Assembly: GCA_050950165.1 (NCBI GenBank)
Contig: JBMNHC010000001.1
Span: forward strand, 1-37,046
Length of the DNA stretch: 37,046 nucleotides
Source of the DNA: Candidatus Dojkabacteria bacterium
Lineage (GTDB): Bacteria > Patescibacteriota > Dojkabacteria > SC72
Direction: 5' to 3'
This document shows, one piece after another, positions 15,070 through 36,890 of the stretch (positions are counted from its first letter, which is position 1; each line of letters begins with the position of its first letter). The translations under genes were made by a program, and so were the position numbers. The notes under the pieces were generated by a model. That model was not told the origin of the DNA. It saw only the letters and a list, made by a program, of their open reading frames with translations, and did no database searches.

Positions 15070-15312
15070 ATGTATAAAAAAATAATAGCTCCTTTCCAAA
15101 AAGTATTACTAGAAAAGAGAATGTGTGTAGGATGTACAAATCCTTTAGACCAAGCAAAAAGAGTAGGAAAACTCTCTGAAAGAAGAGAGATGGTCGAGTG
15201 TAAATGTAAAAGAAGATATGTCTTTAACAAAGAATTAAATGAATACCAAAGAGCTAGTTTTCAAGAAGAGCAACAGTTTCTAAAAGAGCTTTCCAAAAAG
15301 ACTCTTGTATAG
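15070..15312 (+). CDS. Small zinc-ribbon-like hypothetical protein
   Basis: 80-aa ORF with CVGC...24 aa...CKC cysteine pairs. Sits 23 nt after tRNA-Leu and 19 nt before tRNA-Glu. Confidence 0.5.
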   Translation: MYKKIIAPFQKVLLEKRMCVGCTNPLDQAKRVGKLSERREMVECKCKRRYVFNKELNEYQRASFQEEQQFLKELSKKTLV

Positions 15313-15331
15313 TAAAATCTTTCTTAGATAT

Positions 15332-15407
15332 GCCGCTATCGTCTAGTGGACTAGGACAACAGGTTTTCATCCTGTAAACCGGGGTTCGATTCCCCGTAGC
15401 GGTACCA
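15332..15407 (+). tRNA. tRNA-Glu(TTC), CCA encoded
   Basis: Acceptor gccgcta/tagcggt (G1-U72 wobble), anticodon arm acagg-ttttcat-cctgt, T arm cgggg-ttcgatt-ccccg, 3' acca. Confidence 0.88.
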
Positions 15408-15481
15408 TCCAGCTAACCTATAGCTGTGAAGTATTGCAACAACAAGCATACTCCCCCTATACTATAAGTTAGCGGGATAAA

Positions 15482-16102: not shown

Positions 16103-16134
16103 ACTCCAGCTGTGAAACATGCTAGATTATACAG

Positions 16135-16929: not shown

Positions 16930-16940
16930 ACTAAAACAAA

Positions 16941-17813: not shown

Positions 17814-18555
17814 CCCCTACCTCTTGTCTAAGCTTTTCATAAAGTAATACTCCAGCACTAACACTGACATTTAAAGACCCTATTCCCTCTTTCATAGGGA
17901 TGGAGATCTTTTCATCTGCTCTCTCAAGCATACCAGCAGACAACCCTACATCTTCTGCCCCTAGTATAAATGCACATGGACCTTTCAAATTACTCTCAAA
18001 ATATGTCTTACCTTCCATATCAGTAGCAAATATTTTAATGTCATTTCTCTTAAGTTCTTTTACAGCAGTAAAGAGATTCATCTCTACCAAAGGAATTCTT
18101 TCTGCAGCTCCCATAGAGACTCTCATACTCTCATCATTGATAAAAGGAACCTCCGATGGAGAGGTAATAACTCCATTTACCCCTACAGCAAATGCTGTTC
18201 TTAAAATAGCACCGATATTCTGACTATACTTAACATTATCTAAGATAATAAAGAAGGGCATTTTATCTGCAGAATATATACTCTCTAAAAGCTCTTCTAA
18301 AGTCCAATAGTTTTGAGAAATCATCATACCTACTACACTCTCAGACTTAGAGCTCTTTAATCTTCTTGTTAGAGTTTTCTTAGGTACTCTGATAATAGGG
18401 ATCTTTCTTTTAGTAGCAAGGTCAATTATCTCCTTAGTCTTTTCATCTCTGTATGCAGAAGACGCTATATATATATGCTCAAACTCCTTCTCCTCTCGAA
18501 GAAGTTCTAAGAGTGCATTCTTACTCTCAATTTGAATAAAGTGTTGTTTAGCCAT
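17806..18555 (-). CDS. rlmB: SpoU/TrmH-family RNA 2'-O-methyltransferase, RlmB-like
   Basis: N-terminal substrate-binding-like segment (NALLELLREEKEFEHIYI). SPOUT motifs NIGAILRTAFAVGV, FILGAEDVGLS, SLNVSVSAGVLLYE. Confidence 0.85.
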   Translation of the reverse strand: MAKQHFIQIESKNALLELLREEKEFEHIYIASSAYRDEKTKEIIDLATKRKIPIIRVPKKTLTRRLKSSKSESVVGMMISQNYWTLEELLESIYSADKMPFFIILDNVKYSQNIGAILRTAFAVGVNGVITSPSEVPFINDESMRVSMGAAERIPLVEMNLFTAVKELKRNDIKIFATDMEGKTYFESNLKGPCAFILGAEDVGLSAGMLERADEKISIPMKEGIGSLNVSVSAGVLLYEKLRQEVGVK

Positions 18556-18560
18556 CCTAC

Positions 18561-18827
18561 TTAAACAGATTCTAGCACATCAATGTAGAACTGTCCTCTT
18601 TTAAATCCACTCATACGTCTAAACTTTACAATACCATCTATTTTAGAGTGAATTGTATGGTCTCTAGATATATATGTATTCTTACCAGGATGATACACAG
18701 ACCCTCTCTGTTTAACCAAAACATTACCAGCTTTTACACTCTCTCCTTCAAACTTCTTTACTCCCAATCTCTTCCCAGCAACTGTTGAGCCCATTGAGAC
18801 ACTTCCTGCTCCAGCAACTTTCGCCAT
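18561..18827 (-). CDS. rpmA: 50S ribosomal protein L27
   Basis: KRLGVKKFEGESVKAGNVLVKQRGSVYHPGKN...RDHTIHSKIDGIVKF matches L27. The N-terminal tail is divergent. Confidence 0.92.
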   Translation of the reverse strand: MAKVAGAGSVSMGSTVAGKRLGVKKFEGESVKAGNVLVKQRGSVYHPGKNTYISRDHTIHSKIDGIVKFRRMSGFKRGQFYIDVLESV

Positions 18828-18851
18828 TTCTGTGTGTATTAAACTTAATTA

Positions 18852-20027
18852 TTATCTTCTGGATAATATGAAAATATTCCTTGTGATAATACTATTATTT
18901 CTCTCCCATTTCAAGTCCTCTTTTGAATACACCTTGTTTAAAACATCCCATTTTTTACCAATCAGAGAAGATATATTTAAAGTTCTCTGACCACTAAGAG
19001 TCTTGTAAGAAGGAATTACTAGTACAACCTTAAAACCTTTCTTTGCTACAGTATCTAATACTTTGAACAGTCCTGTATACAAGCTCTTAACCTCTTCTAA
19101 AAGAGTATCTGCTTTAAAACTTGTTATCACTTTTCGCAAAACAGGACCCATAAATGGTTCACAGACAACAGCTCTAATACCAGTCTTTTGTAGATCTTTA
19201 ACTATCTTTTTCTCAACATTACGGATATCTAATTGAAAAAGATTGTACTTTACTCCTGCAATTAATCCCTCTCTATGCAACCACAAAATATTCTCATGAG
19301 AGTTAGATATCGCTCTCTGATCTATATCCGTACCTAAGATATCAAAACCTAAAACTGCAGCTTCCATTAGTATAGTACCACTACCACAGAAAGGGTCCCA
19401 GATAATGCCATCTTTTAGTCCTACCAGATTACACATAATTCTAGCTAACTTCTGAGGCAAAACACCCATATCATAGTCTGACTTTGGCCTATCTATATCC
19501 CTTCTTACAAATGATTCAACATCCTGTACACCCAGAGTCCTACCATACATCTGTTTGGTAGGTGTATTAAATATTACAAACTCAAACCCCTTCTCCAATA
19601 TCTTGTTGTTTCTAATTTGAGCCTCATTTAATTGACCTTCTTTGGGTAAAATAAATCTGGAAGAGACACCTTGGTTAGTAAAGAATTTCTTAATCTCATT
19701 AGAAAGCTTCTCTATACTCCTTCTATCTACCTTCCCTCTATCTAAAAACGAGACCCCAAACAGTACCTTCTTGAACTCTAAAAACTGAGGAAGAAAAGAA
19801 TCAATATCCTCAATTACCTCACCATATCTAATATATCCACCTAATCTAGAAAATATTTTAGATATAATTTGTGGTGTAGCTAATTTACTCTCTAAAAGAA
19901 ACACTCCACCTCCAATATTTTTAATAGAGTCTTTAGAAATACCATACGTTTCTAAAACAGTAGATAGCTCTACCAAAGAGAGTGATTGAAACACACCAAA
20001 TTGAAAGAAATATCGCATATTAAGCAA
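18852..20027 (-). CDS. SAM-dependent methyltransferase (UPF0020/Trm11-RlmL-like putative RNA methylase)
   Basis: Motif I WDPFCGSGTILMEAAVLG; motif IV-like VCEPFMGP. The N-terminal about 180 aa is a non-catalytic domain. The start may be MRYFF (20018). Confidence 0.7.
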   Translation of the reverse strand: MLNMRYFFQFGVFQSLSLVELSTVLETYGISKDSIKNIGGGVFLLESKLATPQIISKIFSRLGGYIRYGEVIEDIDSFLPQFLEFKKVLFGVSFLDRGKVDRRSIEKLSNEIKKFFTNQGVSSRFILPKEGQLNEAQIRNNKILEKGFEFVIFNTPTKQMYGRTLGVQDVESFVRRDIDRPKSDYDMGVLPQKLARIMCNLVGLKDGIIWDPFCGSGTILMEAAVLGFDILGTDIDQRAISNSHENILWLHREGLIAGVKYNLFQLDIRNVEKKIVKDLQKTGIRAVVCEPFMGPVLRKVITSFKADTLLEEVKSLYTGLFKVLDTVAKKGFKVVLVIPSYKTLSGQRTLNISSLIGKKWDVLNKVYSKEDLKWERNNSIITRNIFILSRR

Positions 20028-20352
20028 TAGATTTAACCAAAACCCTTGTTATTAAAGCCCTATGGCCCTGAGATCTTCTATATCTAGACTTCGCCTTATA
20101 CTTAAACACATTAACCTTATCATCCTTTTTCTGAGAAGTAATCTCTAAAACTACCTTTGAGCCTTCAACAAGAGGAGTTCCTATTTTAACATCACTACCA
20201 TCAGATACTAGTAAAACATCTTTAATCTCTACCTTATCACCCTTGTTTCCTTTAATCTTGTTTATTTCGTACTCTCTACCTTCATATACCTTAAGCTGTA
20301 CACCAGAGATCTTGATTACTGCAAACTTTTTATTTTCATCAGATTTAATCAT
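20020..20352 (-). CDS. rplU: 50S ribosomal protein L21
   Basis: FAVIKISGVQLKVYEGREYEINKI...VLLV...VKIGTP...KVNVFKYKAKSRYRRSQGHR matches L21. Confidence 0.92.
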   Translation of the reverse strand: MIKSDENKKFAVIKISGVQLKVYEGREYEINKIKGNKGDKVEIKDVLLVSDGSDVKIGTPLVEGSKVVLEITSQKKDDKVNVFKYKAKSRYRRSQGHRALITRVLVKSIA

Positions 20353-20364
20353 AACAGAAGGATT

Positions 20365-21687
20365 TTAATTTATAAAGTCATAATTGTCAATTATCTTTCC
20401 CTTTGTTCTTCGCTCTTTTGTATTATTCATTATACTCTGAATAACTCCCAAAGAGAACAATGTCATAACAGTAATACTTCCTCCAGCACTTACTAAGGGA
20501 AGAGGAATACCTGTTGCAGGAATAGCTCCCGTATTAGTCCCAATGTTAACAAATACTTCTAACAGTATCTTCATAGTAATACCTATTGAGAGCATAAGGA
20601 GGAATGGATTATCCACATTATTAACAGAGAGAATCAGTCCATTTATAATAATTATTCCATACATTATCAGTAAAAAAAGAGAACCTACTAAACCAAACTC
20701 TTCTGCAAAAGATGCAAAGATAAAGTCTGTTTGATGCTCAGGAAGAAAGTTCCTCTTACTCTGAGTACCGTTACCAAAACCTTTTCCAAATATCTGACCT
20801 GACCCTATCGCTATTCTTGCTTGATTAACATTAAACCCTAAGTTTTGAGTATCTTGGCTAGGATTAAGAAATACCTCTATCCTATCCCTTTGGTAATCTT
20901 TTAGAATATCACGATACAAAACAACAGAGAATATACCCACTAATATACTTAAAAATACAGCAGATATGATAAATATTCTCCAGCTATCTCTATAATAGAA
21001 TGAGAATATCGCTAATATTACACCGATTAGTGATATTAAAAGATAGAACCAGTTATTTAGAATAGTCGAGGTAAAAAAGGCAACCGTTATACTTGCAATA
21101 ATGATTAGTAATACACTATTTCTTAATTGGTTATTTAACCCTGTAAACGCAACAAGAAACCATATCAGTAGTATTAGTATAGACATACTACCACTAGGTT
21201 GCATATATACTAGGATAACAATCGGTAGAACTAGAAGAAGAGATATAAAAAAAAGAAACCACTCGTTGTACCTATCTTTAAAAGAAAATACTAATGCAGT
21301 GGTTAATATCACTGTAAACTTCGCTATCTCAGAGGGCTGAATCTGTACTCCAGCTACTACTAACCATCTCTGTACATTGTTAACAACAGGACCAAAAAGA
21401 AGAACCAGAACTAAAAGAACTATCGTTATTAGATATATAACTAATCCTACCTGCCACTCTCTGAATATAGAGATGTTAAACATAGAGAGAAGAAAATATA
21501 TACCAAAACCAAAGAATAAGAATATTAACTGTTTAGTAACAATAGAGAGGTCTCCAAAGGTACCGTCTGTTTGAATCACAGTAGAAAGTAGTGCAATTAT
21601 TCCAATTAAAGAGAGAAAAAGCATAGGAAGAAGCAACCCAAGGTTTACATTTATTTTCCTACTCTCTTTCTTGGATATATTTATCAT
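20365..21687 (-). CDS. SEDS-family peptidoglycan polymerase (FtsW/RodA/SpoVE)
   Basis: About 10 TM segments. QPSEIAKF, RNFLPEHQTDFIFASFAEEFG, GIPLPLVSAGGS. I cannot separate FtsW from RodA by sequence alone. Confidence 0.9.
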   Translation of the reverse strand: MINISKKESRKINVNLGLLLPMLFLSLIGIIALLSTVIQTDGTFGDLSIVTKQLIFLFFGFGIYFLLSMFNISIFREWQVGLVIYLITIVLLVLVLLFGPVVNNVQRWLVVAGVQIQPSEIAKFTVILTTALVFSFKDRYNEWFLFFISLLLVLPIVILVYMQPSGSMSILILLIWFLVAFTGLNNQLRNSVLLIIIASITVAFFTSTILNNWFYLLISLIGVILAIFSFYYRDSWRIFIISAVFLSILVGIFSVVLYRDILKDYQRDRIEVFLNPSQDTQNLGFNVNQARIAIGSGQIFGKGFGNGTQSKRNFLPEHQTDFIFASFAEEFGLVGSLFLLIMYGIIIINGLILSVNNVDNPFLLMLSIGITMKILLEVFVNIGTNTGAIPATGIPLPLVSAGGSITVMTLFSLGVIQSIMNNTKERRTKGKIIDNYDFIN

Positions 21688-21908
21688 ACTCCAATATCTA
21701 TTAACTTAGTTCTACTTCTAATTCCTTTCTTTATTTCAATAAAGCTTTTAGGACATTGGAAATATTCAGAAAGTAATTCTATTAACTCTAAATTAGCATT
21801 ATTGTCATGTGGCTTAGAACGAAGAAATGCCAGATACTTATGTTTTCCTAAATGAGAAATCTCAGATTTAAAAGAGTTTGTTTTTACAACAACCTCTATC
21901 CTAATCAT
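21684..21908 (-). CDS. DUF167 (YggU/UPF0235) family protein
   Basis: PHDNNANLELIELLSEYFQCPKSFIEIKKGIRSRTKLIDI fits DUF167. TAATG overlap with the ftsZ stop. Confidence 0.7.
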   Translation of the reverse strand: MIRIEVVVKTNSFKSEISHLGKHKYLAFLRSKPHDNNANLELIELLSEYFQCPKSFIEIKKGIRSRTKLIDIGV

Positions 21909-23161
21909 TACTTCTTCTTACCTTTAAACATACGTCTCATAAAGGCAGGTTTGTCTAGTGGATCTTCAAAGTCATCATCATCCATCTCTACCTTTTTAGT
22001 TGCTCCTTTCTGAACTTCCTGTTTAAGAGGTTTCTCTGCCTCACTCTCCTCTGGCTCTAGTTCATCATTATCATCAAAGAACATCTCTTTCTTCTCTTCT
22101 ACTTCCTCCTGCTCATCTTCTTCCTTTTTGAAAAATGATGGTTTAAAAGAAAAGTCCTCTATATCATTATCACTCTCTTCTTCTCTTAGTTGTTTTGTAT
22201 ATATCTGTTTGTTTTCATCAAAACCGGTAGCCACTATTGTAATGACAATCTCATCTTCTAAATCTGGATCTATCTGAGCACCAAATATAATATTTGCAGA
22301 TGGATCTACAGCCTCCTTTATTAACTCTGATACCATACTTATTTCAGGAAGTGTTATATCTGCTCCTACAATATTGTAAAGAACACCCGTTGCTCCCTCA
22401 ATAGACATATCAAGTAATGGACTTGTGGTAGCTGCACGAGCTGCTAGCTCTGCCCTATTCTCACCTTTTGCTCTACCGATACCCATAAGGGCTGTCCCAG
22501 AGTTAAGCATTACAGATTTAGCATCATTAAAGTCTGCATTAATATATCCTGTTTGATTAATCAAGTTAGAGATACTATTTACTCCCTCTGCTAAAACAGA
22601 GTCTACCATTTTCATAGCTTCAATAAAGGAGATATTCTCATCTGCTATCTCCAGTAGTCTCTGGTTAGGTACTATAATTAAAGTATCTACCTTGTCTCTT
22701 AATGCCTCTATACCTTCTTCAGCTACCTCTCTTCTCCTATTACCTTCAAAATCGAAGGGTTTAGTCACAACAGCAACTGTTAAAGCTCCCATATTCTTAG
22801 CAACACCTGCTATAATTGGAGCTGCACCAGTACCTGTACCACCTCCCATTCCTGCTGTAATAAATACCATATCTGCTCCCTCTAAAAGTTCCTGTATCTG
22901 ATCCAAACTCTCTTCAGCAGCCTCTGCCCCTATCTCATGATTTCCTCCTACACCCAATCCTTTAGTAAGATTTTCACCTAACTGAAGGGTAATAGGTGCC
23001 TTTGATTGCTTTAGAACCTGAGCATCTGTATTAAAGGCCATAAATTCAACCCCTGTAATATCGTAGTCCATAATCATAGTATTGACGGCATTACATCCTC
23101 CACCACCAACTCCAACTACTTTAATTTTTGCTACCGGATCTACATTTGTTGTAATTAACAT
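21908..23161 (-). CDS. ftsZ: Cell division GTPase FtsZ
   Basis: VVGVGGGGCNAVN, the tubulin signature GMGGGTGTGAAP, NADFNDAKSV. Long acidic linker and C-terminal peptide DKPAFMRRMF. Confidence 0.97.
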   Translation of the reverse strand: MLITTNVDPVAKIKVVGVGGGGCNAVNTMIMDYDITGVEFMAFNTDAQVLKQSKAPITLQLGENLTKGLGVGGNHEIGAEAAEESLDQIQELLEGADMVFITAGMGGGTGTGAAPIIAGVAKNMGALTVAVVTKPFDFEGNRRREVAEEGIEALRDKVDTLIIVPNQRLLEIADENISFIEAMKMVDSVLAEGVNSISNLINQTGYINADFNDAKSVMLNSGTALMGIGRAKGENRAELAARAATTSPLLDMSIEGATGVLYNIVGADITLPEISMVSELIKEAVDPSANIIFGAQIDPDLEDEIVITIVATGFDENKQIYTKQLREEESDNDIEDFSFKPSFFKKEEDEQEEVEEKKEMFFDDNDELEPEESEAEKPLKQEVQKGATKKVEMDDDDFEDPLDKPAFMRRMFKGKKK

Positions 23162-25465: not shown

Positions 25466-26113
25466 ATGATAGATTTAATACTAACAAAAACAGCAGAGAT
25501 ATTAGTCGGTATGGGATACTGGGGAGTATTTTTCTCTGCAATGGGGATATTTCCTACTGAAGTAGTCATTACTCTTTTTGCAGCATCTAAGACTAGCTCT
25601 ATGTGGTTAATAGCTGTTGTATCTTCCTTAGGTGCGGTAATAGGGGGGATACCTACATACTTTTTAGGATATATCTTTAGAGAAGATCTCTTATACAAAT
25701 GGCTTAATACAAAAGGGAGCTTCTTAGGTATAGATACGAACAAGATAGAGGAGAGCAAAAGGAAGATAAGGAAGCATGCATTTTGGTATCTTTTTCTTAC
25801 TAAATTTGTACCATGGTTAAGGGTAGCAGCCAATATTGCAGCAGGATATGTAAGAATAGGTCTACTGCAGTACATATTAGCTACTTTCTTCGGTATGTTT
25901 CTATACACTGTAATACTGGCATTAATAGGGATAGAGGCTGGTGAGAGCTGGGATGAAATAAATAGGTATATAAATATGTTAGATAAAGGAACTGTAACTA
26001 TAATAATAGCGATACTGTTAACATACTTCCTCTACAAGAGTAAGAAAAAGGTAATTTCCAAAGTAAGAGATAGTGAAAGAGATACTATCGATTCTAAACA
26101 ATCAAAATACTAA
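25466..26113 (+). CDS. DedA-family (VTT domain) membrane protein, copy 2
   Basis: GYWGVFFSAMGIFPTEVVITLFAASK, LTKFVPWLRVAANIAAGYVRI and a multi-pass profile. Paralogous in layout to 4405..5025. Confidence 0.8.
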   Translation: MIDLILTKTAEILVGMGYWGVFFSAMGIFPTEVVITLFAASKTSSMWLIAVVSSLGAVIGGIPTYFLGYIFREDLLYKWLNTKGSFLGIDTNKIEESKRKIRKHAFWYLFLTKFVPWLRVAANIAAGYVRIGLLQYILATFFGMFLYTVILALIGIEAGESWDEINRYINMLDKGTVTIIIAILLTYFLYKSKKKVISKVRDSERDTIDSKQSKY

Positions 26114-29100
26114 GAATAGGATTGTTCTCTCCTTCCTCTCTTTGCTAGTAAGATAATTAGTAACATGATAAATAGACCTACTCCCCCTATCACAATATAT
26201 TTTACCTGTGATGAAGAAAGGACCTTACTCTGATCTGGTTCTTCTGTAGGAGTCGTCTCTAACTTCTTTGCTGAGTCACTATCTTTAGTTGTAGCACTAA
26301 TTTCATTTGACCAAACTTCTTTTGCACACTTATTATCACTTCTAATTCTGAAATAGTAGGTTGTATTTGGAGAGAGAGCTTCTACTAGATAAGTTCTGGG
26401 TGTACCCAAAGTCATTTTTACACCAACTAGCTCGTTAGTATAATTTCCTGATTGAGTTCCATATTGTAAGATATATTTACTTGCAAAGTTACTCTTGTCT
26501 GATAAACGTAGCAATATACTGGTAGAACTTTGAGCAACAGCACTATACAACGTTGGTGCCTCTGACTCATATGTACAATCTTGGATTGGTAAAGCTGAAC
26601 TAGTTTTCTTCCTAGGCAACGTAGGTTGAGTAGTAGAGGATTCTGGTGTTGTATCCTCTTTTTCCTTGTTAACAACTAATACTCCTTCTGATTCAGAACT
26701 GTGAAGTCCTGCACCACTTACTGCTTTTACAAAAAAGGTATAAATACCTTCTCCTAAATTTGTAACTACGCTAGTAGATGTAGTTGTACCAGTAAGAGAA
26801 GCTGATCCAGTTACTCTCCATATATATTCAACTATGCCTGAAACCGTATTTGTTGCTGCTGTCCAGAACCAAGTTTGAGATAATAGTGTTGTTGGAGTAG
26901 TAGTTGAAGGAATACCTGGTGTAGAGGGTAGAGATGTATCAACCTTAACAGTATTTGATCCTGTATACGTTGCTTGATTGCCAGCATTATTAGAAACTAG
27001 ATACTGGTATTGATAACAGTAACCTGATGAAATTGTAGTATCAGTATAATCAGGATAATCACCTGATACTGCAATAGTAGAATACTCTCCATATGAATCA
27101 CAAATACCATTTGATAGGGTTGCTGATCTACGCTGAACTGTTCTAGAAGAAGTGTCAATACCTGAATATGGATCGTAACCATCATATACTGTTAGTGCAA
27201 CAGAGCTAGAAGTATTATACCCATCTGCATAATCAATTGATCCTCCCATTGGAACTGATATACCAACTTTGACAGTATTTGATCCTGTATAGGTAGCTTG
27301 ATTTCCAGCATTATCAGAAACTAGGTACTGGTATTGATAACAGTAACCTGATGAAGCTGTATCGTCAGTATAATTAGGATAATCACCTGATACTACAATA
27401 GTAGAATACTCTCCATATGAATCACAAATACCATTTGATAAAGTAGCCAATCTACGTTGGACTGTTCTAGTTGATATATCTATTCCTGAATGTGTATCAT
27501 TACCATCAGCTACCGTTAATGCAATAGACTCAGAAGTACTATACCCATCTGCATAAGCTATTGATCCTCCCGTTGGAGTGATTGTATCAACTTTAACAGT
27601 ATTTGTTCCTGTATAGGTAGCTTGATTACCTGCATTATCAGAAACTAGATATTGGTATTGATAACAATTACCTGATGAAATTGTATCGTCAGTATAATTG
27701 GGATAATCACCAGATTCTGCAATAGTAGAATACTTACCATAGTCACTACAAGCACCATTTGATAAAGTAGCTGTTCTACGCTGAACTATTCTAGTTGATA
27801 TATCTATTCCTGAATGTGTATCATTACCATCAGCTACTGTTAGTGCTACAGATCCTGAGGTATTATACCCATCTGCATAAGCTATTGATCCTCCCGTTGG
27901 AGTGATTGTATCAACTTTAACAGTATTTGTTCCTGTATAGGTAGCTTGATTACCTGCATTATCAGAAACTAGATATTGGTATTGATAACAATTACCTGAT
28001 GAAATTGTATCGTCAGTATAATTGGGATAATCACCAGATTCTGCAATAGTAGAATACTTACCATAGTCACTACAAGCACCATTTGATAAAGTAGCTGTTC
28101 TACGCTGAACTATTCTAGTTGATATATTTATACCTGAGTGCGCATCATTACCATCGTTTACTGTTAGTGCAACAGAGCTAGAGGTGTTGTACCCATCTGC
28201 ATAAGCTATTGATCCTCCCGTTGGAGTGATTGTATCAACTTTAACAGTATTTGTTCCTGTATAGGTAGCTTGATTGCCGGCATTATCTGAAACTAGATAT
28301 CGATATTGATAACAATTACCTGATGCTACAGTATCATCAGTATGATTAGGATAGGTTCCTGATATTTCAATAGTAGAATAACCTCCATACAAGCCACAAG
28401 TACCATTTGATAAAGTTGCTGATCTTCGCTGAACTATTCTAGAAGATATATTTATACCTGAGTGTGCATCAGCACCATCAGCTACCGTTAGTGCTACAGA
28501 CCCAGAAGTATTATAACCGTCTGTATAAGCAATTGATCCACCTGTTGGAGCTGATGTGTCTATACCGAAGTCTGGATTACCACCTTTTGCTGTCCATGGG
28601 CCTGTACCAACAACATTATTAGTACTAGCTTGCCAATGATAGGTTGTTCCATTTGTTAAACCTGAAACTGTTACAGATCCCAAAACTGGACTATCCGAAT
28701 ACTGTACTTCTGTACCTGAGTGAGTCATTGAATCTGTGAAAGGCGATGCATTAGGCTTAACTTCTACATATGGTGTTAATGAATCAGGACTGTTTGTTGA
28801 GGACATATTAAATTTAAGAACTACTGATGTTTCATTTATCCAGCCACCAGAAGGAATTAATGTTACCCCATCGGATCTGTATTGTGAAAGAGAAGTTGCT
28901 ACAGCAGGAGCTTGATATTCATATGGTCCTATATCAGGATTCCCTACCAACTCATTACCTAAAATATCAGCTGTTCTAGAGGCAACTGTTATCCCTTCAT
29001 TGATCATCGGAGAACTAGCCGTTAGACGGAAGTCATCATTACCACTAAAATCTCTCGTAAAGATACTACCTTCTGAATTAGTCCAATCTTCAGAAGTCCT

Positions 29101-29406
29101 AATTGTATTAATAATATTCTCAAAAGAATTAACTTCTATATATTTACCATTATATTTTGCTACCTCATCAATCATCCAAGCCCACTCTTGATGAGTCATC
29201 TCATCAGTTGAATGAGAAAGTAGTCCATAAAAATACCCATTACTTGCTATAGATGCTAAAACCCTAGCCCCTTGTTCAATGTCACCTTTTGAACGATCTC
29301 CAACAAAAGTACTAACTGTTGGACGACCATAAATGTTAAATACATCGATTGATCCAAGCCAAGTTTGTTGTAAGGAAGTACCAACATTGCTACTTCTTGC
29401 TCCTAT
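26110..29406 (-). CDS. C-terminal part of the giant surface protein: end of a CE4 domain, FN3-like module, 5 x 108-aa repeats, 2 FN3-like modules, P/T linker, TM anchor
   Basis: The frame is open from 29406; the first ATG is 29199 (the ORF-track 1029-aa ORF). There is no signal peptide after that ATG. TTYHWQA and TTYYFRIRS are FN3-like. The C-terminus is IVIGGVGLFIMLLIILLAKRGRRE. Confidence 0.8.
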   Translation of the reverse strand: MGARSSNVGTSLQQTWLGSIDVFNIYGRPTVSTFVGDRSKGDIEQGARVLASIASNGYFYGLLSHSTDEMTHQEWAWMIDEVAKYNGKYIEVNSFENIINTIRTSEDWTNSEGSIFTRDFSGNDDFRLTASSPMINEGITVASRTADILGNELVGNPDIGPYEYQAPAVATSLSQYRSDGVTLIPSGGWINETSVVLKFNMSSTNSPDSLTPYVEVKPNASPFTDSMTHSGTEVQYSDSPVLGSVTVSGLTNGTTYHWQASTNNVVGTGPWTAKGGNPDFGIDTSAPTGGSIAYTDGYNTSGSVALTVADGADAHSGINISSRIVQRRSATLSNGTCGLYGGYSTIEISGTYPNHTDDTVASGNCYQYRYLVSDNAGNQATYTGTNTVKVDTITPTGGSIAYADGYNTSSSVALTVNDGNDAHSGINISTRIVQRRTATLSNGACSDYGKYSTIAESGDYPNYTDDTISSGNCYQYQYLVSDNAGNQATYTGTNTVKVDTITPTGGSIAYADGYNTSGSVALTVADGNDTHSGIDISTRIVQRRTATLSNGACSDYGKYSTIAESGDYPNYTDDTISSGNCYQYQYLVSDNAGNQATYTGTNTVKVDTITPTGGSIAYADGYSTSESIALTVADGNDTHSGIDISTRTVQRRLATLSNGICDSYGEYSTIVVSGDYPNYTDDTASSGYCYQYQYLVSDNAGNQATYTGSNTVKVGISVPMGGSIDYADGYNTSSSVALTVYDGYDPYSGIDTSSRTVQRRSATLSNGICDSYGEYSTIAVSGDYPDYTDTTISSGYCYQYQYLVSNNAGNQATYTGSNTVKVDTSLPSTPGIPSTTTPTTLLSQTWFWTAATNTVSGIVEYIWRVTGSASLTGTTTSTSVVTNLGEGIYTFFVKAVSGAGLHSSESEGVLVVNKEKEDTTPESSTTQPTLPRKKTSSALPIQDCTYESEAPTLYSAVAQSSTSILLRLSDKSNFASKYILQYGTQSGNYTNELVGVKMTLGTPRTYLVEALSPNTTYYFRIRSDNKCAKEVWSNEISATTKDSDSAKKLETTPTEEPDQSKVLSSSQVKYIVIGGVGLFIMLLIILLAKRGRREQSYS
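26926..28545 (-). repeat. Five in-frame tandem repeats of 324 bp (108 aa) inside the giant gene
   Basis: Units start at TGGSI(A/D)Y(A/T)DGY and end at NTVKV(D/G). Units 2 and 3 are 100% identical over 264 bp (27540-27803 and 27864-28127). Confidence 0.9.
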
Positions 29407-31012
29407 TTAAGTTTGTATGTTCCTGTATCCAGTTTAAAACCGCACTATTTGCCTTATTAAATGGAAATGCCAAAGTTTTTACCGTATATCCTGAACAACC
29501 CGAACCCCCTTGCACTGCTTCTTCTAAATCAGTAATGGAGTTTGTTATCTCCTCTGTATAATATCTATTCGTAGCCTCTGTTGAATCATCAAAAGGAATT
29601 CCTATTGGAGTACCAATAGGTAAACTTGTAGAAGCATCCTTCAAAGTAATCGAAGGTGTATAAGGAGAAATATTAGTCACTACAGAACACATATAATTTG
29701 GCCAATTATCTTCAATTATTGCGCATAATTTCCCAATAGTATCGTAAGATATATTTGTTAAATCAATAGAAGTGTGCGTATCACCTGAGCCTGTTACAGA
29801 TAGTCGAGTTCCATTATTAGAAACAACAAATGTAATATCATCATGAAACCCAATATAGGTAACACTAATAGCATCAGATAGGCTTAAATCATTGTGATGT
29901 CTTGTATGAACTCCTACTTCATGTCCCTTTCTATAAAGATCTTGTAGTTTTGTTTTATCACTATCATTTAATCTATGCGTGTCTGAGATATAACAAGATA
30001 TTGGAATGTTATAATTTGTCATTGCATAATTAGCATTTGTCACACAGTAGTTAAGATTTTCCCTATCATCTGTAGAAAAAGCTAAGTAACCTAGATTTGT
30101 TCTAGTAGATTTATAATGTGGGAAAGCATTAATAATATCATCTGCTGAATTCCAAGTTTTTGCACCTGTACCACTAGTAACAGTCTGAGGCGTATCCCAC
30201 CTACCCTGAATCAAACAATTAGTAGTATTAATTGTTCCCCCATTATTATAATGAAAGACATTTCCTGTTAAAGTACCATTTGCTGTAAAGCTACAGTTAG
30301 TAAAATTAGCTTCATCCCCACTATGTACAGACACAGCTACATTAGCAACCCCATTAACTACACAATTGTAGAAATAAGCAGTTCCAGCATTTGCAGCATT
30401 AAACTCAATACCTCTAGCATTTGGATTACCATACAAAACAACGTTTATAAAGGTTGTTGTATAAGAACTATCAGTTCTTAAGCTAATACTATAATTGTTT
30501 CCTCCAGCATTAACAATATATACATTTTTTACTAAAGTATTGTTCTTATATATTGCTAAAGGTACATAACTACCTGACCCTGAGATAGTTAAATTTTGAA
30601 TAACAATATTATCTGCATTTGCTCCTAGGGTATAAGAAGAATTATTATTCGTAATCGTTACTGCTCCATTAAATCCAGCAATAGATGAACCTTGAATAGT
30701 TAACTGTTTGTTTATGGAAGCATTATGACCTGCATAACTTTTTCCATTTGCTCCTCCAGAAAATTCAATTGTATCTCCATTAGTAGCAGCAGTAAAAGCA
30801 GCAGAAAAAGTCTTATACGAATTGTTCGCTGTATATTCAGGATCATCAAAAGGTCGAGTTGGATTATTTGCACTACCATCAGAATCTGCATTTACATAAT
30901 GTGTCGCTGCATTAACTGGAGAGTGCATTATGAGAAAGAAACCTATTACAAAGAAAAGAGAGATTAAAAACCTAAAAACCCTCAAAGAGGAAAAACTACT
31001 ATCTGTACACAT
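29390..31012 (-). CDS. N-terminal part of the giant surface protein: signal peptide, parallel beta-helix, first part of a CE4/NodB polysaccharide deacetylase
   Basis: Signal peptide LISLFFVIGFFLIMHSPVNA. Asn/Gly-rich about 22-aa rungs (NIVIQNLTISGSG, VKNVYIVNAGG, FINVVLYGN, FYNCVVNG, FTNCSF, TTNCLIQG). CE4 motifs FSTDD, HTRHH, LAFPF. Confidence 0.8.
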   Translation of the reverse strand: MCTDSSFSSLRVFRFLISLFFVIGFFLIMHSPVNAATHYVNADSDGSANNPTRPFDDPEYTANNSYKTFSAAFTAATNGDTIEFSGGANGKSYAGHNASINKQLTIQGSSIAGFNGAVTITNNNSSYTLGANADNIVIQNLTISGSGSYVPLAIYKNNTLVKNVYIVNAGGNNYSISLRTDSSYTTTFINVVLYGNPNARGIEFNAANAGTAYFYNCVVNGVANVAVSVHSGDEANFTNCSFTANGTLTGNVFHYNNGGTINTTNCLIQGRWDTPQTVTSGTGAKTWNSADDIINAFPHYKSTRTNLGYLAFSTDDRENLNYCVTNANYAMTNYNIPISCYISDTHRLNDSDKTKLQDLYRKGHEVGVHTRHHNDLSLSDAISVTYIGFHDDITFVVSNNGTRLSVTGSGDTHTSIDLTNISYDTIGKLCAIIEDNWPNYMCSVVTNISPYTPSITLKDASTSLPIGTPIGIPFDDSTEATNRYYTEEITNSITDLEEAVQGGSGCSGYTVKTLAFPFNKANSAVLNWIQEHTNLNRSKK

Positions 31013-31083: not shown

Positions 31084-31266
31084 TTATAATGTCTCATAAT
31101 ATTGTAGATTTAGTGATTCCTGTTGTATAATCTCATCACAAACTCCCCACATAATTTGTTTTAAATAATTAATATATATGGATCCTAAAGAGTTTGATGA
31201 AGTAGCAAGTACCCCAGACACAGATAAAGAGATAATTTCCTCAAGGATAGTTTTTCCAAAAATCAA
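31084..31266 (-). CDS. Orphan 60-aa ORF in the largest intergenic gap (doubtful)
   Basis: The only ORF in the 328-bp gap. No recognisable motif. Confidence 0.2.
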   Translation of the reverse strand: MIFGKTILEEIISLSVSGVLATSSNSLGSIYINYLKQIMWGVCDEIIQQESLNLQYYETL

Positions 31267-31340
31267 ATAGCAAAGAAACTAGAAAAGGATAAATCTGTGG
31301 TCAAATAACAGACCTACTTCCAATGCTTACTTTGTTAACG

Positions 31341-31417
31341 TGGAGCGAGAGACGGGATTCGAACCCGCGACCTACACATTGGCAATGTGTCGTTCTAGCC
31401 AACTGAACTACTCTCGC
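31341..31417 (-). tRNA. tRNA-Gly(GCC), CCA encoded
   Basis: Reverse complement gcgagag-ta-gttc-agttggcta-gaac-g-acaca-ttgccaa-tgtgt-aggtc-gcggg-ttcgaat-cccgt-ctctcgc-t-cca. Confidence 0.9.
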
Positions 31418-31421
31418 GGTA

Positions 31422-31494
31422 TGCCGAGACTCAGATTTGAACTGAGGACCCTCTGTTCTTCAGACAGATGCTCTACCAACTGAGCTATCTCGGC
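31422..31494 (-). tRNA. tRNA-Phe(GAA), no encoded CCA
   Basis: Reverse complement gccgaga-ta-gctc-agttggta-gagc-a-tctgt-ctgaaga-acaga-gggtc-ctcag-ttcaaat-ctgag-tctcggc-a. Confidence 0.9.
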
Positions 31495-31519
31495 AAGTAG
31501 TAGTAATAATAACAAGGTA

Positions 31520-32626
31520 TTAGATATTTTTCAATATTATCCTCTCTAACTCCATCTTAAATCTCTCCGTACTAAATCTCTTTGCACTAGCACTAACCTC
31601 CCCCCTATCCCACTCAATCTTTTTAAATCTATCCATAGCTTCTTTAAATGATTCCAAAGTCATCTCTTTAAAAAACACCCCATTAACTCCATCTACCACA
31701 CCATCCATATATCCACTCTCCATATATGCAAGTACTGGAGTACCAAAAGAGAGAGCCTCAATAGGGAAAATACCGAAATCTTCTACACCAGCTCCAATAA
31801 ATCCAAAAGCCTTAGAAAAAAGCCTCTCCTTTTCCTTCTCTGAAACCCTACCTAAAAACTCAATATTTGAAACCCCACTATACATTCTCTTAAACCTTTT
31901 ATACAACAGTCCCTTACCAATTACTTTTAGATTAAACCCTAACTCTTTAGCACACTCAAACAGAAACTCTCCACCCTTGTTCTCATCAAAAGGAGCACCA
32001 GAGAGAAAATATGGTTCTCGCTTCTTTCTAATCTCTCCTTCATATATCTTAACTGGAGGATGTAGTAAGTAGTCACACTTCTTCCTCCAATATTTAAATA
32101 TCCTTTTTTGAACAAAGGTAGAGTTAGCTATCAACAGATCAGCTCTCTCTGAAGCAGAAATATCCCATATTCTTAGAAAATTAACAAACATGCCCACTAT
32201 TATCCTCTTTAGGACAAAACTTCTACTAAAATATTCATTGTAAAGATCCCAAATATATCTCATAGGGGTATGAATGTATGAAATATGCTTAGTTTTAACT
32301 GGAACAATTACACCGTGAGCAACAGAAAAACTATTAGAAATCACTAAATCATATTCCGAAAAATCAAAAGATTCTATAAATATCGGCCATAGAAAGAGAG
32401 TATATCTATAATATCTTTTTAAAAAGGGTAACCTATTCAACTTAGAAAAAAATACTCTCTCTGTTTTAAAATACCTCTTAGCTTCTTGTTCATAACCCAT
32501 TAAGAAAAAGTAATCTACTGAAGAAAACATCTGACCAATACACCTACTAACAGAAGATGCACCAGCAAAACCGAAACAATGATCTCCAACTATTGCAACC
32601 TTGATATCTTTTAAATCCTTAGTCAT
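31520..32626 (-). CDS. GT-B fold glycosyltransferase (family 4 / group 1)
   Basis: KVAIVGDH...GASS N-terminal domain. C-terminal EX7E motif EDFGIFPIEALSFGTPVLAY. Start placed at MTKDLK (32626); the ORF-track Met is at 32656. Confidence 0.85.
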   Translation of the reverse strand: MTKDLKDIKVAIVGDHCFGFAGASSVSRCIGQMFSSVDYFFLMGYEQEAKRYFKTERVFFSKLNRLPFLKRYYRYTLFLWPIFIESFDFSEYDLVISNSFSVAHGVIVPVKTKHISYIHTPMRYIWDLYNEYFSRSFVLKRIIVGMFVNFLRIWDISASERADLLIANSTFVQKRIFKYWRKKCDYLLHPPVKIYEGEIRKKREPYFLSGAPFDENKGGEFLFECAKELGFNLKVIGKGLLYKRFKRMYSGVSNIEFLGRVSEKEKERLFSKAFGFIGAGVEDFGIFPIEALSFGTPVLAYMESGYMDGVVDGVNGVFFKEMTLESFKEAMDRFKKIEWDRGEVSASAKRFSTERFKMELERIILKNI

Positions 32627-33302
32627 GATAAACAATTGTACCTCTTCTTCTTTCAAAAAGAGATATTTTACTATTTACAATAAAGATACCTACTCCAATT
32701 AATACTAGACCTACTATTACACCAATATATGTAGGCTCTATAGCTGTTTGAGGGCTCTTAAATCTACCTAATGAAAAAACAGCATCTTCTGGTTTAACAA
32801 GTAATACATTCTGTGGAGGACTACCCTCTTGCATAATTGAAGATTTAAAGAGTTCATTAGAACCAGAATATTCAAAACTTAATACAACATCATCTTTACT
32901 CTCAGTTATTACCTCAAACTCTACTCTAGCTATTACATCAGGATTACTTACTGTCTTGTACAAACTCTTCCCTGTTCCAGACTGAGTAAATCCTGTAAGC
33001 ATTAACATCCCCCTACTGTTATCTATAGTGCTCTCATCTTCTGGCCAAAGATTAAACAGAGTGTTATTCTTACTAGCCTTAACTACACGTACTTGCGTAG
33101 GATTAAACTTAATAGCAAACCTTGCAGAGGTAATATCTGCACCTTCAGAATCTATTAAAATATCTACTGTAAAAATCCTTGATGTACTCTTAACTGTTCC
33201 GTTTGAAGGATAGAAAGAAAAATTTGCAGCTAAGGTATAAATCGGTGATATTAACAGTAAAACAACAGCTAGTAATATTACTTCTAGATTTTTTCGTGTC
33301 AT
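32619..33302 (-). CDS. Cohesin-like domain protein with a signal peptide and a C-terminal TM anchor
   Basis: Signal peptide VILLAVVLLLISPIYTLA. FSFYPSNGTV...FTVDILIDSEGADITSARFAIKFNPTQVRVV...MLMLTGF resembles the type-I cohesin fold pattern. C-terminal TM IGVIVGLVLIGVGIFIV. Family assignment is from memory. Confidence 0.6.
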   Translation of the reverse strand: MTRKNLEVILLAVVLLLISPIYTLAANFSFYPSNGTVKSTSRIFTVDILIDSEGADITSARFAIKFNPTQVRVVKASKNNTLFNLWPEDESTIDNSRGMLMLTGFTQSGTGKSLYKTVSNPDVIARVEFEVITESKDDVVLSFEYSGSNELFKSSIMQEGSPPQNVLLVKPEDAVFSLGRFKSPQTAIEPTYIGVIVGLVLIGVGIFIVNSKISLFERRRGTIVYHD

Positions 33303-33350: not shown

Positions 33351-34118
33351 ATGGAGATGTTTAATATTGTACTTCTAGCTATAGAACAAGGTATTACAGA
33401 ACTACTACCGATATCTAGTAGTGCTCATTTAATTTTAACAGGCCAATTACTAGATATTAAGGTAGATACATATCTTCTTTCAGTATTTCACTTAGGTACT
33501 ACTATTGCTACTGTAATATATTTCTTGCCTCTCTTTTTAAAAAATATCAGTAAAAAGAGTTCTTTACTTTTCTATACAAAGGTCATAGTAGCTACTATAC
33601 CTGTAGCTTTAATAGGGTTGCTTTTTAAAGATATCGTTGAACAAGTATTAAGAGGAAACATTATTATAGTGATATCACTCATTCTCTGGGGAATTGTCAT
33701 GATATTTATTGAAAGTAGATATACAGAGAGAAAGGAAATAGATCCATACAAGATTAGCTGGAAACAATCCTTAACAATGGGTTTTGCACAAATATTAGCT
33801 CTAATACCTGGTACATCTAGATCTGCAATTACTACCATTGCTGGTATTTTTTCAGGTGTTAATAAATATAGTGCTATACAATTCTCTTTCATATTAAGTA
33901 TCCCTATTCTCTTAGGAGCATCTATCTATGGAATATATGAAGGTTTACCAACAGAAGGATTTACTACTCAACATTTGGTAGGAATTACTCTCTCTGCAAT
34001 AGTGGGATATATATCATTGCAATTTCTTAAGAGGATTAAAAAGGGAAAATGGTTATCTGTATTTGGATATTACAGAATAGTGTTAGGTATAACGATTCTT
34101 CTTCTTACACTTCTTTAA
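33351..34118 (+). CDS. uppP: Undecaprenyl-diphosphate phosphatase
   Basis: GITELLPISSSAHLIL and PGTSRSAITT are the BacA/UppP signature motifs. About 8 TM segments. Confidence 0.92.
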   Translation: MEMFNIVLLAIEQGITELLPISSSAHLILTGQLLDIKVDTYLLSVFHLGTTIATVIYFLPLFLKNISKKSSLLFYTKVIVATIPVALIGLLFKDIVEQVLRGNIIIVISLILWGIVMIFIESRYTERKEIDPYKISWKQSLTMGFAQILALIPGTSRSAITTIAGIFSGVNKYSAIQFSFILSIPILLGASIYGIYEGLPTEGFTTQHLVGITLSAIVGYISLQFLKRIKKGKWLSVFGYYRIVLGITILLLTLL

Positions 34119-35761
34119 AGTACAGTTCTTAAATCTATACCTGTCATACTATCTGGTACTTCTAATCCTAAAAGTCCTAGACATGTAGGAGCAACATCAG
34201 CTAATAAACCAGTAGTTTTAGCATTAGGACCAGTACCTACTTTTAAGAGGTTTCTACCAGGAGTTGGAGTAAGCTCTTTTGAATCTGTAACAACTATAAG
34301 AGGTACAGGATTGTTAGTATGAGAGATATCTATCTCTTTTGTCACCCTATTTATCATAGTCTCACAGTTTCCGTGATCAGCTGTAACGATAGCTGCACCT
34401 CCAGCTGCTACTGTAGCTTTTACAATCTCTCCTGTTAGAGTATCCACTATCTCATTACCATGAATAGTTGCTCGTATATCTCCTGTGTGTCCTAACATAT
34501 CTGGATTAGCAAAATTGATTAGAATAAATCTATACCTATTCTCCTTAATCCTCTTTATCCTATCCAACACCTCATCTCTAATGATAGGTGCACTCATTGC
34601 TGGAACCTTAGCATAGTTATCTATCTTAGGAGATGGAATATTGATAGTATCCTCACCTTTGAGAGCCTGTTCAATACCACCATTAAAGAAATATGTAACG
34701 TGCATATTCTTCTCTGTCTCAGATACATGCAACTGATTCATATTAAAATCTGCAAGATGTGATGCTAAAGACTTCTTAATCTTTTTAGGAGGAAAGATTA
34801 CATGTGCAGGAATACCTTCTTCGTATCCAGTCATAGTAGTAAAAAATAGATTCTCAGGAAAATCTCTTCTAACAAAATGAGTAAAGTCCTTAAGAACGAA
34901 AGCCTTAGTTAACTCTCTTGCTCTGTCTTCCCTAAAATTCCAATATATAACTACATCATTAGATCTAATTGGACCTACAGGTACACCATTTGCATCTACA
35001 CACGTTCTTGGTATAAAGAACTGGTCTGTTTCATTTACTGTATACGCTTTCTGTAAAGCAACAATTGGATCTTGAAAAGTCTCTTGAGAAAGACCTACCA
35101 TAGCATCATAAGCTAGTTTAATTCTCTCCCACCTACTATCCCTATCCATTCCATAAAACCTACCTTGCAAAGAAGCTATTCTACCTACACCAAGTTCCGC
35201 AATCTTTTCATTTAACTTACTAAGATACAAAAATCCATCTCTAGGAGGAGTATCTCTACCATCTAGCATAGGGTGAATAAAAGGATTTACACCGTTAGCT
35301 TTTGCAAGCTCCATTAAAGAAAAAAGGTGTTTAATATGACCGTGAACTCCTGCAGCACTCAATACCCCAACAAGATGCAAATTAGAACCTCTTTGCTTAA
35401 CCTGAGTAAAAACCTCTTTTAAAACCTCATTACTATCTAACTCATGTGTAGAGATAGCGTCATTAATCCTAGGCAATGTTTGATACACTACCTGCCCTGC
35501 ACCTAAGTTAAGATGTCCTACCTCACTGTTACCATCCTCTTCTCCAGGAAGCCCTACATATGTTCCAGAAGCATGAATCAATGTAGATCTAGCCTGTGTC
35601 CATATTGTATCTAGAAAGGGTGTCTTTGCAGCCACTACCGTATTACCTTCAGGATCTGGATGTATTCCAAAACCATCCAATATTATCAATGTAACAAATT
35701 CTCTCGTTTCTTGCTCTTGTTTACTGTCCTCCGCTTTTTTTCTACTAAAAAGTCCGAACAT
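34115..35761 (-). CDS. gpmI: 2,3-bisphosphoglycerate-independent phosphoglycerate mutase, copy 2
   Basis: LIILDGFG, GNSEVGHLNLGAGQ, AGVHGH, LDGRDTPP, GRFYGMDRDSRWER, NFREDR, EKNMHVTYFFNGG, NPDMLGHTG, ADHGNCE. Start placed at MFGLFS (35761). The ORF-track start at 35881 would overlap prfB on the other strand. Confidence 0.92.
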   Translation of the reverse strand: MFGLFSRKKAEDSKQEQETREFVTLIILDGFGIHPDPEGNTVVAAKTPFLDTIWTQARSTLIHASGTYVGLPGEEDGNSEVGHLNLGAGQVVYQTLPRINDAISTHELDSNEVLKEVFTQVKQRGSNLHLVGVLSAAGVHGHIKHLFSLMELAKANGVNPFIHPMLDGRDTPPRDGFLYLSKLNEKIAELGVGRIASLQGRFYGMDRDSRWERIKLAYDAMVGLSQETFQDPIVALQKAYTVNETDQFFIPRTCVDANGVPVGPIRSNDVVIYWNFREDRARELTKAFVLKDFTHFVRRDFPENLFFTTMTGYEEGIPAHVIFPPKKIKKSLASHLADFNMNQLHVSETEKNMHVTYFFNGGIEQALKGEDTINIPSPKIDNYAKVPAMSAPIIRDEVLDRIKRIKENRYRFILINFANPDMLGHTGDIRATIHGNEIVDTLTGEIVKATVAAGGAAIVTADHGNCETMINRVTKEIDISHTNNPVPLIVVTDSKELTPTPGRNLLKVGTGPNAKTTGLLADVAPTCLGLLGLEVPDSMTGIDLRTVL

Positions 35762-35807
35762 AGGTTGTAGATATTGTAAAAATAAAAATCTAGTATAATA
35801 TACATAA

Positions 35808-36890
35808 ATGTATATGATTAGTAAAAAGGATATCACACAGCTTGAAAAGAAACTCTCTGATATCACAGAGTCCTTAGACATCCCTTCTAAAAAAGATACC
35901 TTAGATATATTAACTCGTGAGAGTAAAAAAGAAAACCTCTGGAAAGATCAAAAGAATGCTCAGAAGATTCTAAGTGATATTAATGAGATAACGGAAGAGA
36001 TTGAAAAGGTAGAAAGGTTTAAAAACCAACTCTTTTCACTACAAACTCTTCTAGAAGAAACTAGCGAAGAGGAGATATCTTTGTTAGAAGAAGAGTACTG
36101 GAAATTAAAAAAAGAGATAGAGGAATTTGAAATACTAAAGTTTCTCTCTAACAAATATGATAAAGCAGGAGCAATACTCTCAATACATTCAGGACAGGGA
36201 GGAACAGAAGCTGAAGACTGGGCTAGAATGCTTCTTAGAATGTATACCATGTATATTGAAAAAAGAGGTTGGCAGTATACAACAGTGAACATAGCGAAGG
36301 GAAGTGAAACAGGTATATCTACTGCTACACTAAATATTCCAAATAGATACGCATACGGTATGCTAAAAAAAGAACACGGAGTACACAGACTCGTCAGACT
36401 CTCTCCATTTAATGCACAGAATCTTAGACAGACATCTTTTGCTGCAGTAGAGGTAGTACCAATACTTGAAGAATTAGATGATGAGATAGAGATACCTCCT
36501 TCAGATATTGAATTTAAGGCTGTTAGATCTGCTGGTCCAGGTGGACAGAATGTAAATAAAACATCGACTGCAGTCCAAATTACACATACTCCAACTAATA
36601 TTGTTGTTCACTGTTCAGAGAGAAGAAGCCAACTAGAAAATAGAGAGAGAGCTATGCAGATATTAAAAGGTAAACTTTGGAAAATATTAGAAGAGAACAG
36701 ACTAAAAGAGATATCCGAGATAAAAGGAGATTATAAAATAGCGGGATGGGGAAACCAGATACGAAACTACATACTACACCCATACAAACTAGTAAAAGAT
36801 TTAAGAACTGGAGTAGAAAGTAGTACTCCTGAGCGTGTATTGGATGGAGATTTAGATAAATTTCTTGAAGCTGAAGTCAGAATACAGTAA
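35808..36890 (+). CDS. prfB: Peptide chain release factor 2, uninterrupted frame
   Basis: SPF tripeptide (RLSPFNAQ), GGQ motif (SAGPGGQNVNKTSTAV), SGQGGTEAEDWA. There is no in-frame UGA or frameshift near codon 25. Confidence 0.93.
   Translation: MYMISKKDITQLEKKLSDITESLDIPSKKDTLDILTRESKKENLWKDQKNAQKILSDINEITEEIEKVERFKNQLFSLQTLLEETSEEEISLLEEEYWKLKKEIEEFEILKFLSNKYDKAGAILSIHSGQGGTEAEDWARMLLRMYTMYIEKRGWQYTTVNIAKGSETGISTATLNIPNRYAYGMLKKEHGVHRLVRLSPFNAQNLRQTSFAAVEVVPILEELDDEIEIPPSDIEFKAVRSAGPGGQNVNKTSTAVQITHTPTNIVVHCSERRSQLENRERAMQILKGKLWKILEENRLKEISEIKGDYKIAGWGNQIRNYILHPYKLVKDLRTGVESSTPERVLDGDLDKFLEAEVRIQ

Follow-up and report, generated by a model that had tools for sequence, protein, structure and literature searches.

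A frameshifted gene for a surface-anchored CE4-type enzyme, probably a young pseudogene, in a Candidatus Dojkabacteria genome

Frameshift pseudogenes derived from large bacterial surface-protein genes carry a single insertion or deletion (indel) in an otherwise intact long open reading frame (ORF), have intact orthologues, have lost essential residues and show no recoding signal. The same combination was found for a gene on the minus strand of contig JBMNHC010000001.1 of a Candidatus Dojkabacteria genome (assembly GCA_050950165.1), of which positions 1 to 37,046 were analysed (hereafter referred to as the window). The gene is divided into two ORFs of 540 and 1029 amino acids (aa), and we regard it as very probable that the break represents a genuine and recent loss-of-function frameshift in the gene of a surface-anchored CE4-type enzyme, i.e. 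a young pseudogene. Nothing essential distinguishes it from ordinary frameshift pseudogenes; what stands out is that the gene has also been hit in sister lineages, each time by a different single lesion.

The enzymatic part of the product resembles the CE4 family (PF01522), known from BA0150 of B. anthracis (4m1b), Bc1960 of B. cereus (4l1g), PdaC of B. subtilis (6h8l) and ArnD of Salmonella (8t0j), in the motifs MT1 (FSTDD) and MT2 (HTRHH), in an MT3-like (AFPF) and an MT5-like motif (LSH) and in its predicted fold. Unlike the known CE4 enzymes, the family represented in the window contains a ~130-aa beta-rich insert between MT2 and MT3, its MT3 Arg is not at the canonical place, and in every case the module carries a beta-helix fused to its N-terminal side and a choice-of-anchor-Q-like motif fused to its C-terminal side. 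Moreover, its sequence similarity to the solved enzymes is undetectable by hidden Markov models (HMM).

At the break itself the closest described system is the programmed +1 frameshift of prfB (RF2), in which a Shine-Dalgarno (SD)-like element is followed by the P-site codon and a stop codon with a subsequent C. The stimulators of this type, an SD-like element and a stop codon at the A site, are present in the window as well: AGGAG lies shortly upstream of the P-site codon, followed by the stop and by C (AGGAG-C-AAG-AAG-UAG-C). However, the window differs from prfB in lacking a slippery codon of the CUU-U type, in a spacing of 4 instead of 3 nucleotides (nt) and in a shift that is not conserved in any relative.

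The gene and its lesion

According to the ORF list the upstream ORF of 540 aa extends over positions 29390-31012 (minus strand) and ends in ...NWIQEHTNLNRSKK before its stop codon, while the 1029-aa ORF covers positions 26110-29199 on the same strand. Translation upstream of the ATG at 29199 revealed that this second frame is open back to 29406 and comprises 1098 codons in total (26110-29406); its 5' end reads IGARSSNVGTSLQQTW...GLLSHSTDEM and directly follows a TAA at 29407-29409. The upstream frame closes at the TAG at 29390-29392. The deletion of any one base within 29390-29408 generates a single ORF of 1633 codons encoding a protein of 1633 aa. The ORF list, the translations and the single-base deletions are hence in agreement with the original prediction of a single gene cut into two ORFs by one +1 frame change, and direct translation reproduced both the boundaries of the two frames and the 14 nt between their stops. 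As the GC content of the window is 34%, an open frame of 1098 codons is not attributable to chance, and an out-of-frame stop five codons past the shift is expected for such AT-rich DNA. The following features were assigned.

29390..31012, minus strand: upstream ORF of 540 aa with signal peptide, right-handed beta-helix region and CE4/NodB module, of which only the N-terminal two thirds (FSTDD, HTRHH, AFPF) are included; five out-of-frame codons (NRSKK) and TAG follow
30908..31012, minus strand: predicted Sec signal peptide, aa 1-35 (...HSPVNA, cleavage before AT), judged by eye; the sole export signal in the whole gene
29390..29409, minus strand: lesion, a 14-nt overlap (29393-29406) between the TAA at 29407-09, which closes the downstream frame, and the TAG at 29390-92, which closes the upstream frame
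26110..29406, minus strand: downstream open frame of 1098 codons with the last three CE4 barrel strands (invariant Arg; His of LSH at 29212-29214), a choice-of-anchor-Q-like motif, FN3/Ig-like domains, five 108-aa repeats, two FN3 domains and a C-terminal membrane anchor
29095..30091, minus strand: CE4/NodB-like (beta/alpha) barrel module with a ~130-aa beta-rich insert, aa ~308-639 of the fused protein, junction at aa 535/536
26935..28555, minus strand: stalk repeats, five tandem units of 324 bp with 87% matches, encoding 108-aa Ig-like repeats
26113..26199, minus strand: C-terminal hydrophobic anchor and basic tail (YIVIGGVGLFIMLLIILLAKRGRREQSYS); comparable tails occur in L007 and L010

The fused protein would thereby consist of the signal peptide, the beta-helix, the CE4 module with its insert, the choice-of-anchor-Q-like motif, the FN3/Ig-like region, the five 108-aa repeats, the two FN3 domains and the C-terminal anchor. 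Hydrophobic leaders resembling the predicted signal peptide were also detected at the start of the homologues P0006-P0012 and P0014.

Homologues were collected by a search with the conceptually fused junction region, by genome and metagenome scans (L004-L010), by a profile search (P0005-P0012) and by an exhaustive HMMER search covering 1.84 billion representatives. All 13 lineages that cover the site (44-85% identity) are continuous there, reading ...HTNL-IGARS... with the general pattern N(T)xLIG(A)R. L004, L005, L007, L009, P0006-P0012 and P0014 possess intact ORFs (869-1573 aa), and in the first four of these the whole match is located inside a single ORF of 907-1205 aa. In the intact protein P0014 (1573 aa) residues 24-545 align with the upstream ORF at 64% identity and end with ...WIKTHTNL, and from residue 546 (IGARR...) onwards the aligned partner is the downstream frame, beginning at its first codon, which places the boundary between ...HTNL and IGAR.... 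The exhaustive HMMER search yielded 1073 representative proteins at E<=1e-3; among the best 150 of these 1073, nearly all show a single uninterrupted alignment that covers the profile positions ~20 to ~423. Orthologues are also present in metagenome-assembled genomes labelled "Patescibacteria group" and "Candidatus Saccharibacteria". The GatB protein encoded in the window shares 70-71% identity with proteins assigned to Candidatus Dojkabacteria. The comparison with orthologous loci, which had been suggested as a check, accordingly shows relatives that are continuous across the site and P0014 as colinear with both ORFs. Relatives that keep two separate genes, which had been named as evidence to the contrary, were not encountered, the homologues covering the junction being in one frame across it.

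At the DNA level, the two closest relatives carry CTTAATTGGAGC where the window carries CTTAAATAGGAGC, corresponding to one extra base at about 29404-29408. Read over a longer stretch, L003 and L006/L011/L012 (80-85% aa and about 87% nt identity) show ACAAACTTAATTGGAGCAAGAAGTAGTGATACTGT and the window shows ACAAACTTAAATAGGAGCAAGAAGTAGCAATGT. The window's allele corresponds to CTTAAATAGG, and an in-frame allele would read CTTAATAGG or CTTAATTGG. In the mRNA the lesion reads CUU AAA UAG GAG CAA GAA GUA G, and the ancestral reading ...EHTNL-IGARSS... equals the window sequence minus one A of the AAA at 29406-29408, which is also the longest run at the site. In comparison with the two closest relatives the window contains the additional nucleotide (in TTA-A-AT), one synonymous-type T>A substitution and an in-frame deletion of 3 nt located 12 nt downstream (SSDTVG to SSNVG), resulting in a net difference of -2 nt. 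The extra base behind the proposed +1 frame change was thus confirmed, although it is not the only difference, since a substitution and a 3-nt deletion accompany it.

The deletion lies in a short segment (29378-29392, minus strand) that also differs from both sisters by substitutions (AGTAGTGATACTGTT to AGTAGCAATGTT, SSDTV to SSNV), several changes being clustered within about 30 nt.

The homology between the window and L006/L011 is limited to the gene and about 70 nt upstream of it (L011 1-1868 versus window 31085-33000). The flanks encode a SpoU methylase and YunG in L011, and tRNA-Gly/tRNA-Phe and a GT4 glycosyltransferase in the window. Because the flanking genes differ, the gene resides in different neighbourhoods in lineages that are 87% identical at the nucleotide level within it.

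The catalytic module across the break

The original prediction that the CE4/NodB motifs straddle the break is supported by invariant residues on both sides of it and by profile matches and a predicted fold that run past the junction. In an alignment of 11 sequences (45-85% identity) the invariant residues D29 and D30 (FSTDD), H83 and H87 (HTRHH) and P231 (AFPF) precede the junction, and R253, H314 (LSH) and W326 follow it. The junction is located between the module residues 249 and 250, which correspond to aa 535 and 536 of the fused protein. The metal-triad and catalytic motifs of CE4 enzymes MT1, MT2 and MT5 (Asp, His..His, LxH) are present and invariant in the 11 sequences. The Arg of MT3 is not found at its canonical place (AFPF), and the invariant Arg R253 follows the junction.

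An AlphaFold2 model of the module based on the same 11-sequence alignment reached a predicted local distance difference test score (pLDDT) of 73 and a predicted template modelling score (pTM) of 0.71; an earlier model from four sequences was unusable (pLDDT 40). After the junction the model contains the strands 251-253, 268-270 and 307-314 as well as several helices. A Foldseek search against the PDB retrieved the CE4 deacetylases 6hm9, 4m1b, 6h8l, 8t0j (ArnD), 3rxz, 4l1g and 2j13 with a probability of 1.0, target-normalised template modelling scores of 0.5-0.65 and alignments of 330-400 columns, at E-values of just 3e-4 to 4e-2. Both the model and the Foldseek matches show the distorted (beta/alpha) barrel that defines the CE4 fold extending past the junction. 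A profile search of PDB chains, on the other hand, gave no significant match, the best being a sulfatase (E = 0.25).

It had also been proposed that a PF01522 alignment of the fused protein would span the junction, which could not be confirmed. The match comprises residues 323-377 and ends at profile position 72 of 124 (20-72), i.e. half a domain, and with a cutoff of 23.1 bits the upstream ORF reaches 24.1 bits, while the fused protein, at 21.4 bits, stays below it. The alignment does not span the junction because the ~130-aa insert interrupts the domain; the family members P0087, P0098 and P0042 reach 33-37 bits for PF01522. A complete NodB domain ending before 29390, which would argue for two independent genes, was not found, as invariant residues and strands lie after the junction. 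According to the model, what the break cuts is a single catalytic barrel, and the 540-aa product lacks its last three strands, the invariant Arg and the His of LxH in addition to the stalk and the anchor.

The module probably modifies glycans of the cell envelope or of a host. The intact orthologues define a widespread uncharacterised module of beta-helix, CE4 barrel with large insert and choice-of-anchor-Q motif, several of the closest ones originating from Patescibacteria.

The unit of CE4 barrel, ~130-aa insert and choice-of-anchor-Q-like tail is represented in the 1073 clusters at E<=1e-3 and is usually found downstream of a beta-helix, some 300 aa into the protein (P0014-P0157). No member of it has a solved structure or a specific Pfam or NCBIfam name.

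Loss of function and competing explanations

The lesion was recovered in separate assemblies. Across the site the 540-aa product and its DNA are 100% identical to the window in the Logan assemblies SRR31061296 (L001, 3125 bp) and SRR31061295 (L002, 2098 bp), both contigs starting at window position 31370, within tRNA-Gly, and crossing the lesion unbroken. The ~30 other genes of the window, among them those encoding FtsQ/A/Z/W, GatB, ParA/B, L21, Lgt, UppP (BacA) and two phosphoglycerate mutase paralogues, show full-length Pfam matches and none of them is split. Since the same broken DNA is present in the assemblies of two read sets and the ~30 neighbours are intact, an assembler artefact appears unlikely.

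Both Logan contigs end at or before the 324-bp array, the copy number of which may be unreliable in short-read assemblies. A strain-level relative from a different data set, L013 (ERZ21942150), shares 99.58% nt identity with the window over positions 12934-22606 (9.7 kb) and ends 3.5 kb short of the gene.

The ratios of non-synonymous to synonymous substitution rates (dN/dS) according to Nei-Gojobori, calculated for the window versus L003 or L006, amount to 0.48-0.49 upstream and 0.26-0.34 downstream of the lesion, at a dS of 0.17-0.35. No second lesion was detected in the 1098 downstream codons. Given dN/dS values below 0.5 on both sides and the absence of a second lesion, the gene was presumably under purifying selection for nearly all of its divergence, which suggests that the break is recent.

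The scenario we favour starts from one ancestral gene, about 1633 codons long, for a multidomain protein anchored at the cell surface; one base inserted at about 29404-29408 would have changed the reading frame within the catalytic barrel. Ribosomes that initiate at the native start would then halt after 540 aa, and the product would be exported without the end of the barrel, the stalk and the anchor. The 1098 codons beyond the break seem unlikely to be expressed: ATG, GTG and TTG are absent from the downstream frame before 29199, and no obvious ribosome-binding site was seen at that position. Between the two ORFs, scans for promoters and terminators did not exceed the counts obtained with shuffled sequence. 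When the 1029-aa product was looked up as an exact match, no further contig was returned. As had been noted before, the signal peptide (predicted by eye at aa 1-35) is encoded by the upstream ORF only, so a downstream product would lack an export signal of its own. The gene shows a feature that characterises a pseudogene, namely a disruption relative to intact orthologues that removes essential residues. Of the causes considered by the original prediction, recent pseudogenisation has the best support, and the evidence disfavours each of the other three (assembly indel, recoding, on/off switch). An annotation should join the two ORFs and mark them as a single frameshifted gene, the "1029-aa protein" not being an independent gene.

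Three points weigh against this interpretation. The Logan runs may be the source libraries of the genome, so that a systematic sequencing error or a mixed population may be involved. The wholly intact downstream frame of 1098 codons may also fit continued use, e.g. by low-level frameshifting or by reversion in part of the population. Finally, as the closest relatives each possess a single lesion of their own, truncated forms may be tolerated or even selected.

The last point refers to lesions at other positions of the gene. L003, the contig of which was seen in 5 samples, carries a TGG to TAG change (2395-2397) in place of the invariant Trp (W326); this codon is located 78 codons further downstream than the window's shift. 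L006/L011/L012 carry a CAG to TAG change at IVQRR in a repeat unit, found in three assemblies (L006 5104-5106, equivalent to L011 4846-4848, and L012 2892-2894). In the distant L010/P0004 the beta-helix and the CE4 module are separated by a TAA (6046-6048), five codons after which an ATG occurs. The window and both closest sister lineages thus each contain an independent single lesion, and the gene is intact in at least seven lineages that are more distantly related.

The L011 gene ends about 110 codons before the end of the window's gene (...YILEYGTESGK-TGA), followed by a GC-rich hairpin and a T run (L011 6500-6600), and this version has neither the last FN3 half nor the membrane anchor.

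The independent single lesions in the same gene of the closest lineages, together with dN/dS values below 0.5 that indicate a gene otherwise under purifying selection, could point to a functional split or an on/off contingency locus, which we nevertheless consider unlikely. Truncation would then be selected or reversible, e.g. to shed an exposed surface anchor targeted by phage or host contact, and the secreted beta-helix fragment or a re-initiated downstream product might keep a role. However, the site contains no homopolymer longer than 3 and no short repeat, the sole tandem repeat being the 324-bp unit far downstream, and hence offers no mechanism for reversible (slipped-strand) switching. 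Furthermore, the cut deprives both halves of invariant residues of the catalytic barrel, the downstream half possesses neither a signal peptide nor a start codon before 29199, and there are just four known cases of a lesion. In an AT-rich genome G:C to A:T changes readily create TAG and TAA, and a long surface-protein gene presents a large mutational target, which is the simplest account of the recurrent lesions. The loss may be tolerated or favoured in the sampled habitats.

A similarly improbable variant would be that the break is one case of a recurrent selected truncation in a Dojkabacteria clade, comprising the frameshift at aa 535, the TAG at aa 613 and the TAG at aa 968, all of which remove stalk and anchor while the rest is under purifying selection. 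If true, it would mean repeated on-to-off switching of an exposed surface structure, e.g. under pressure from phage or host contact, and low-level read-through or +1 shifting at AGGAG-N4-AAG-UAG might accompany it. The repeated independent lesions hint that some settings, among them an anaerobic digester (the source metagenome of L006, PMC10477309), do not require the surface protein or select against it.

A sequencing or assembly indel is somewhat less likely still. It would imply that the genome possesses an intact 1633-codon gene and that the extra A is erroneous, which would be compatible with a one-base lesion located in a short run of A (AAA, 29406-29408) and with Logan contigs that may derive from the genome's own libraries. 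But a run of 3 bases is not a typical error site, and the window, L001 and L002, which originate from different software or runs, are identical base for base; none of the other ~30 genes of the window is broken, and the two Logan contigs pass the site without interruption.

A prfB-type programmed +1 frameshift, finally, is very unlikely, even though the mRNA (U-AGGAG-C-AAG-AAG-UAG-C) has the SD-like core just upstream of a stop followed by C in a prfB-like layout and the downstream frame of 1098 codons is intact. In this case the ribosome would pause with AAG in the P site and UAG in the A site, and the AGGAG 4 nt upstream of AAG would push it by +1 into AGU-AGC, giving some full-length protein. 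Such a shift is not conserved, since 13 of 13 relatives covering the site are in frame, including the sisters at 80-85% identity, which carry GGAGCAAGAAGTAG as in-frame Gly-Ala-Arg-Ser-Ser codons. SD-like core and stop are hence by-products that arise because conserved codons are read out of frame. The re-pairing of tRNA-Lys from AAG to AGU would moreover be poor owing to a U:U mismatch, and none of the codons AAU, AGG, AGC, AAG and AAG re-pairs well. With no such codon and no repeat tract in the 14-nt overlap, the reported absence of a canonical slippery site holds. A stable local RNA structure was not found at the site (z = -0.32).

For the in-frame TAG codons of the relatives, reassignment or suppression of TAG was considered and rejected: the 32 genes of the window end with TAA (22), TAG (7) or TGA (3), none of its 8 tRNAs is a suppressor, and the window's own lesion is a frameshift.

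Other features of the window

Two full-length paralogues of the cofactor-independent phosphoglycerate mutase (iPGM), each with the domains iPGM_N and Metalloenzyme, are encoded within the 37 kb at 2853-4415 (plus strand) and 34115-35881 (minus strand). Two proteins with a DedA/VTT domain are predicted at 4405-5025 and 25466-26113. The genes for tRNA-Gly(GCC) and tRNA-Phe(GAA) are located at 31341-31495 on the minus strand, about 330 nt upstream of the start of the frameshifted gene.

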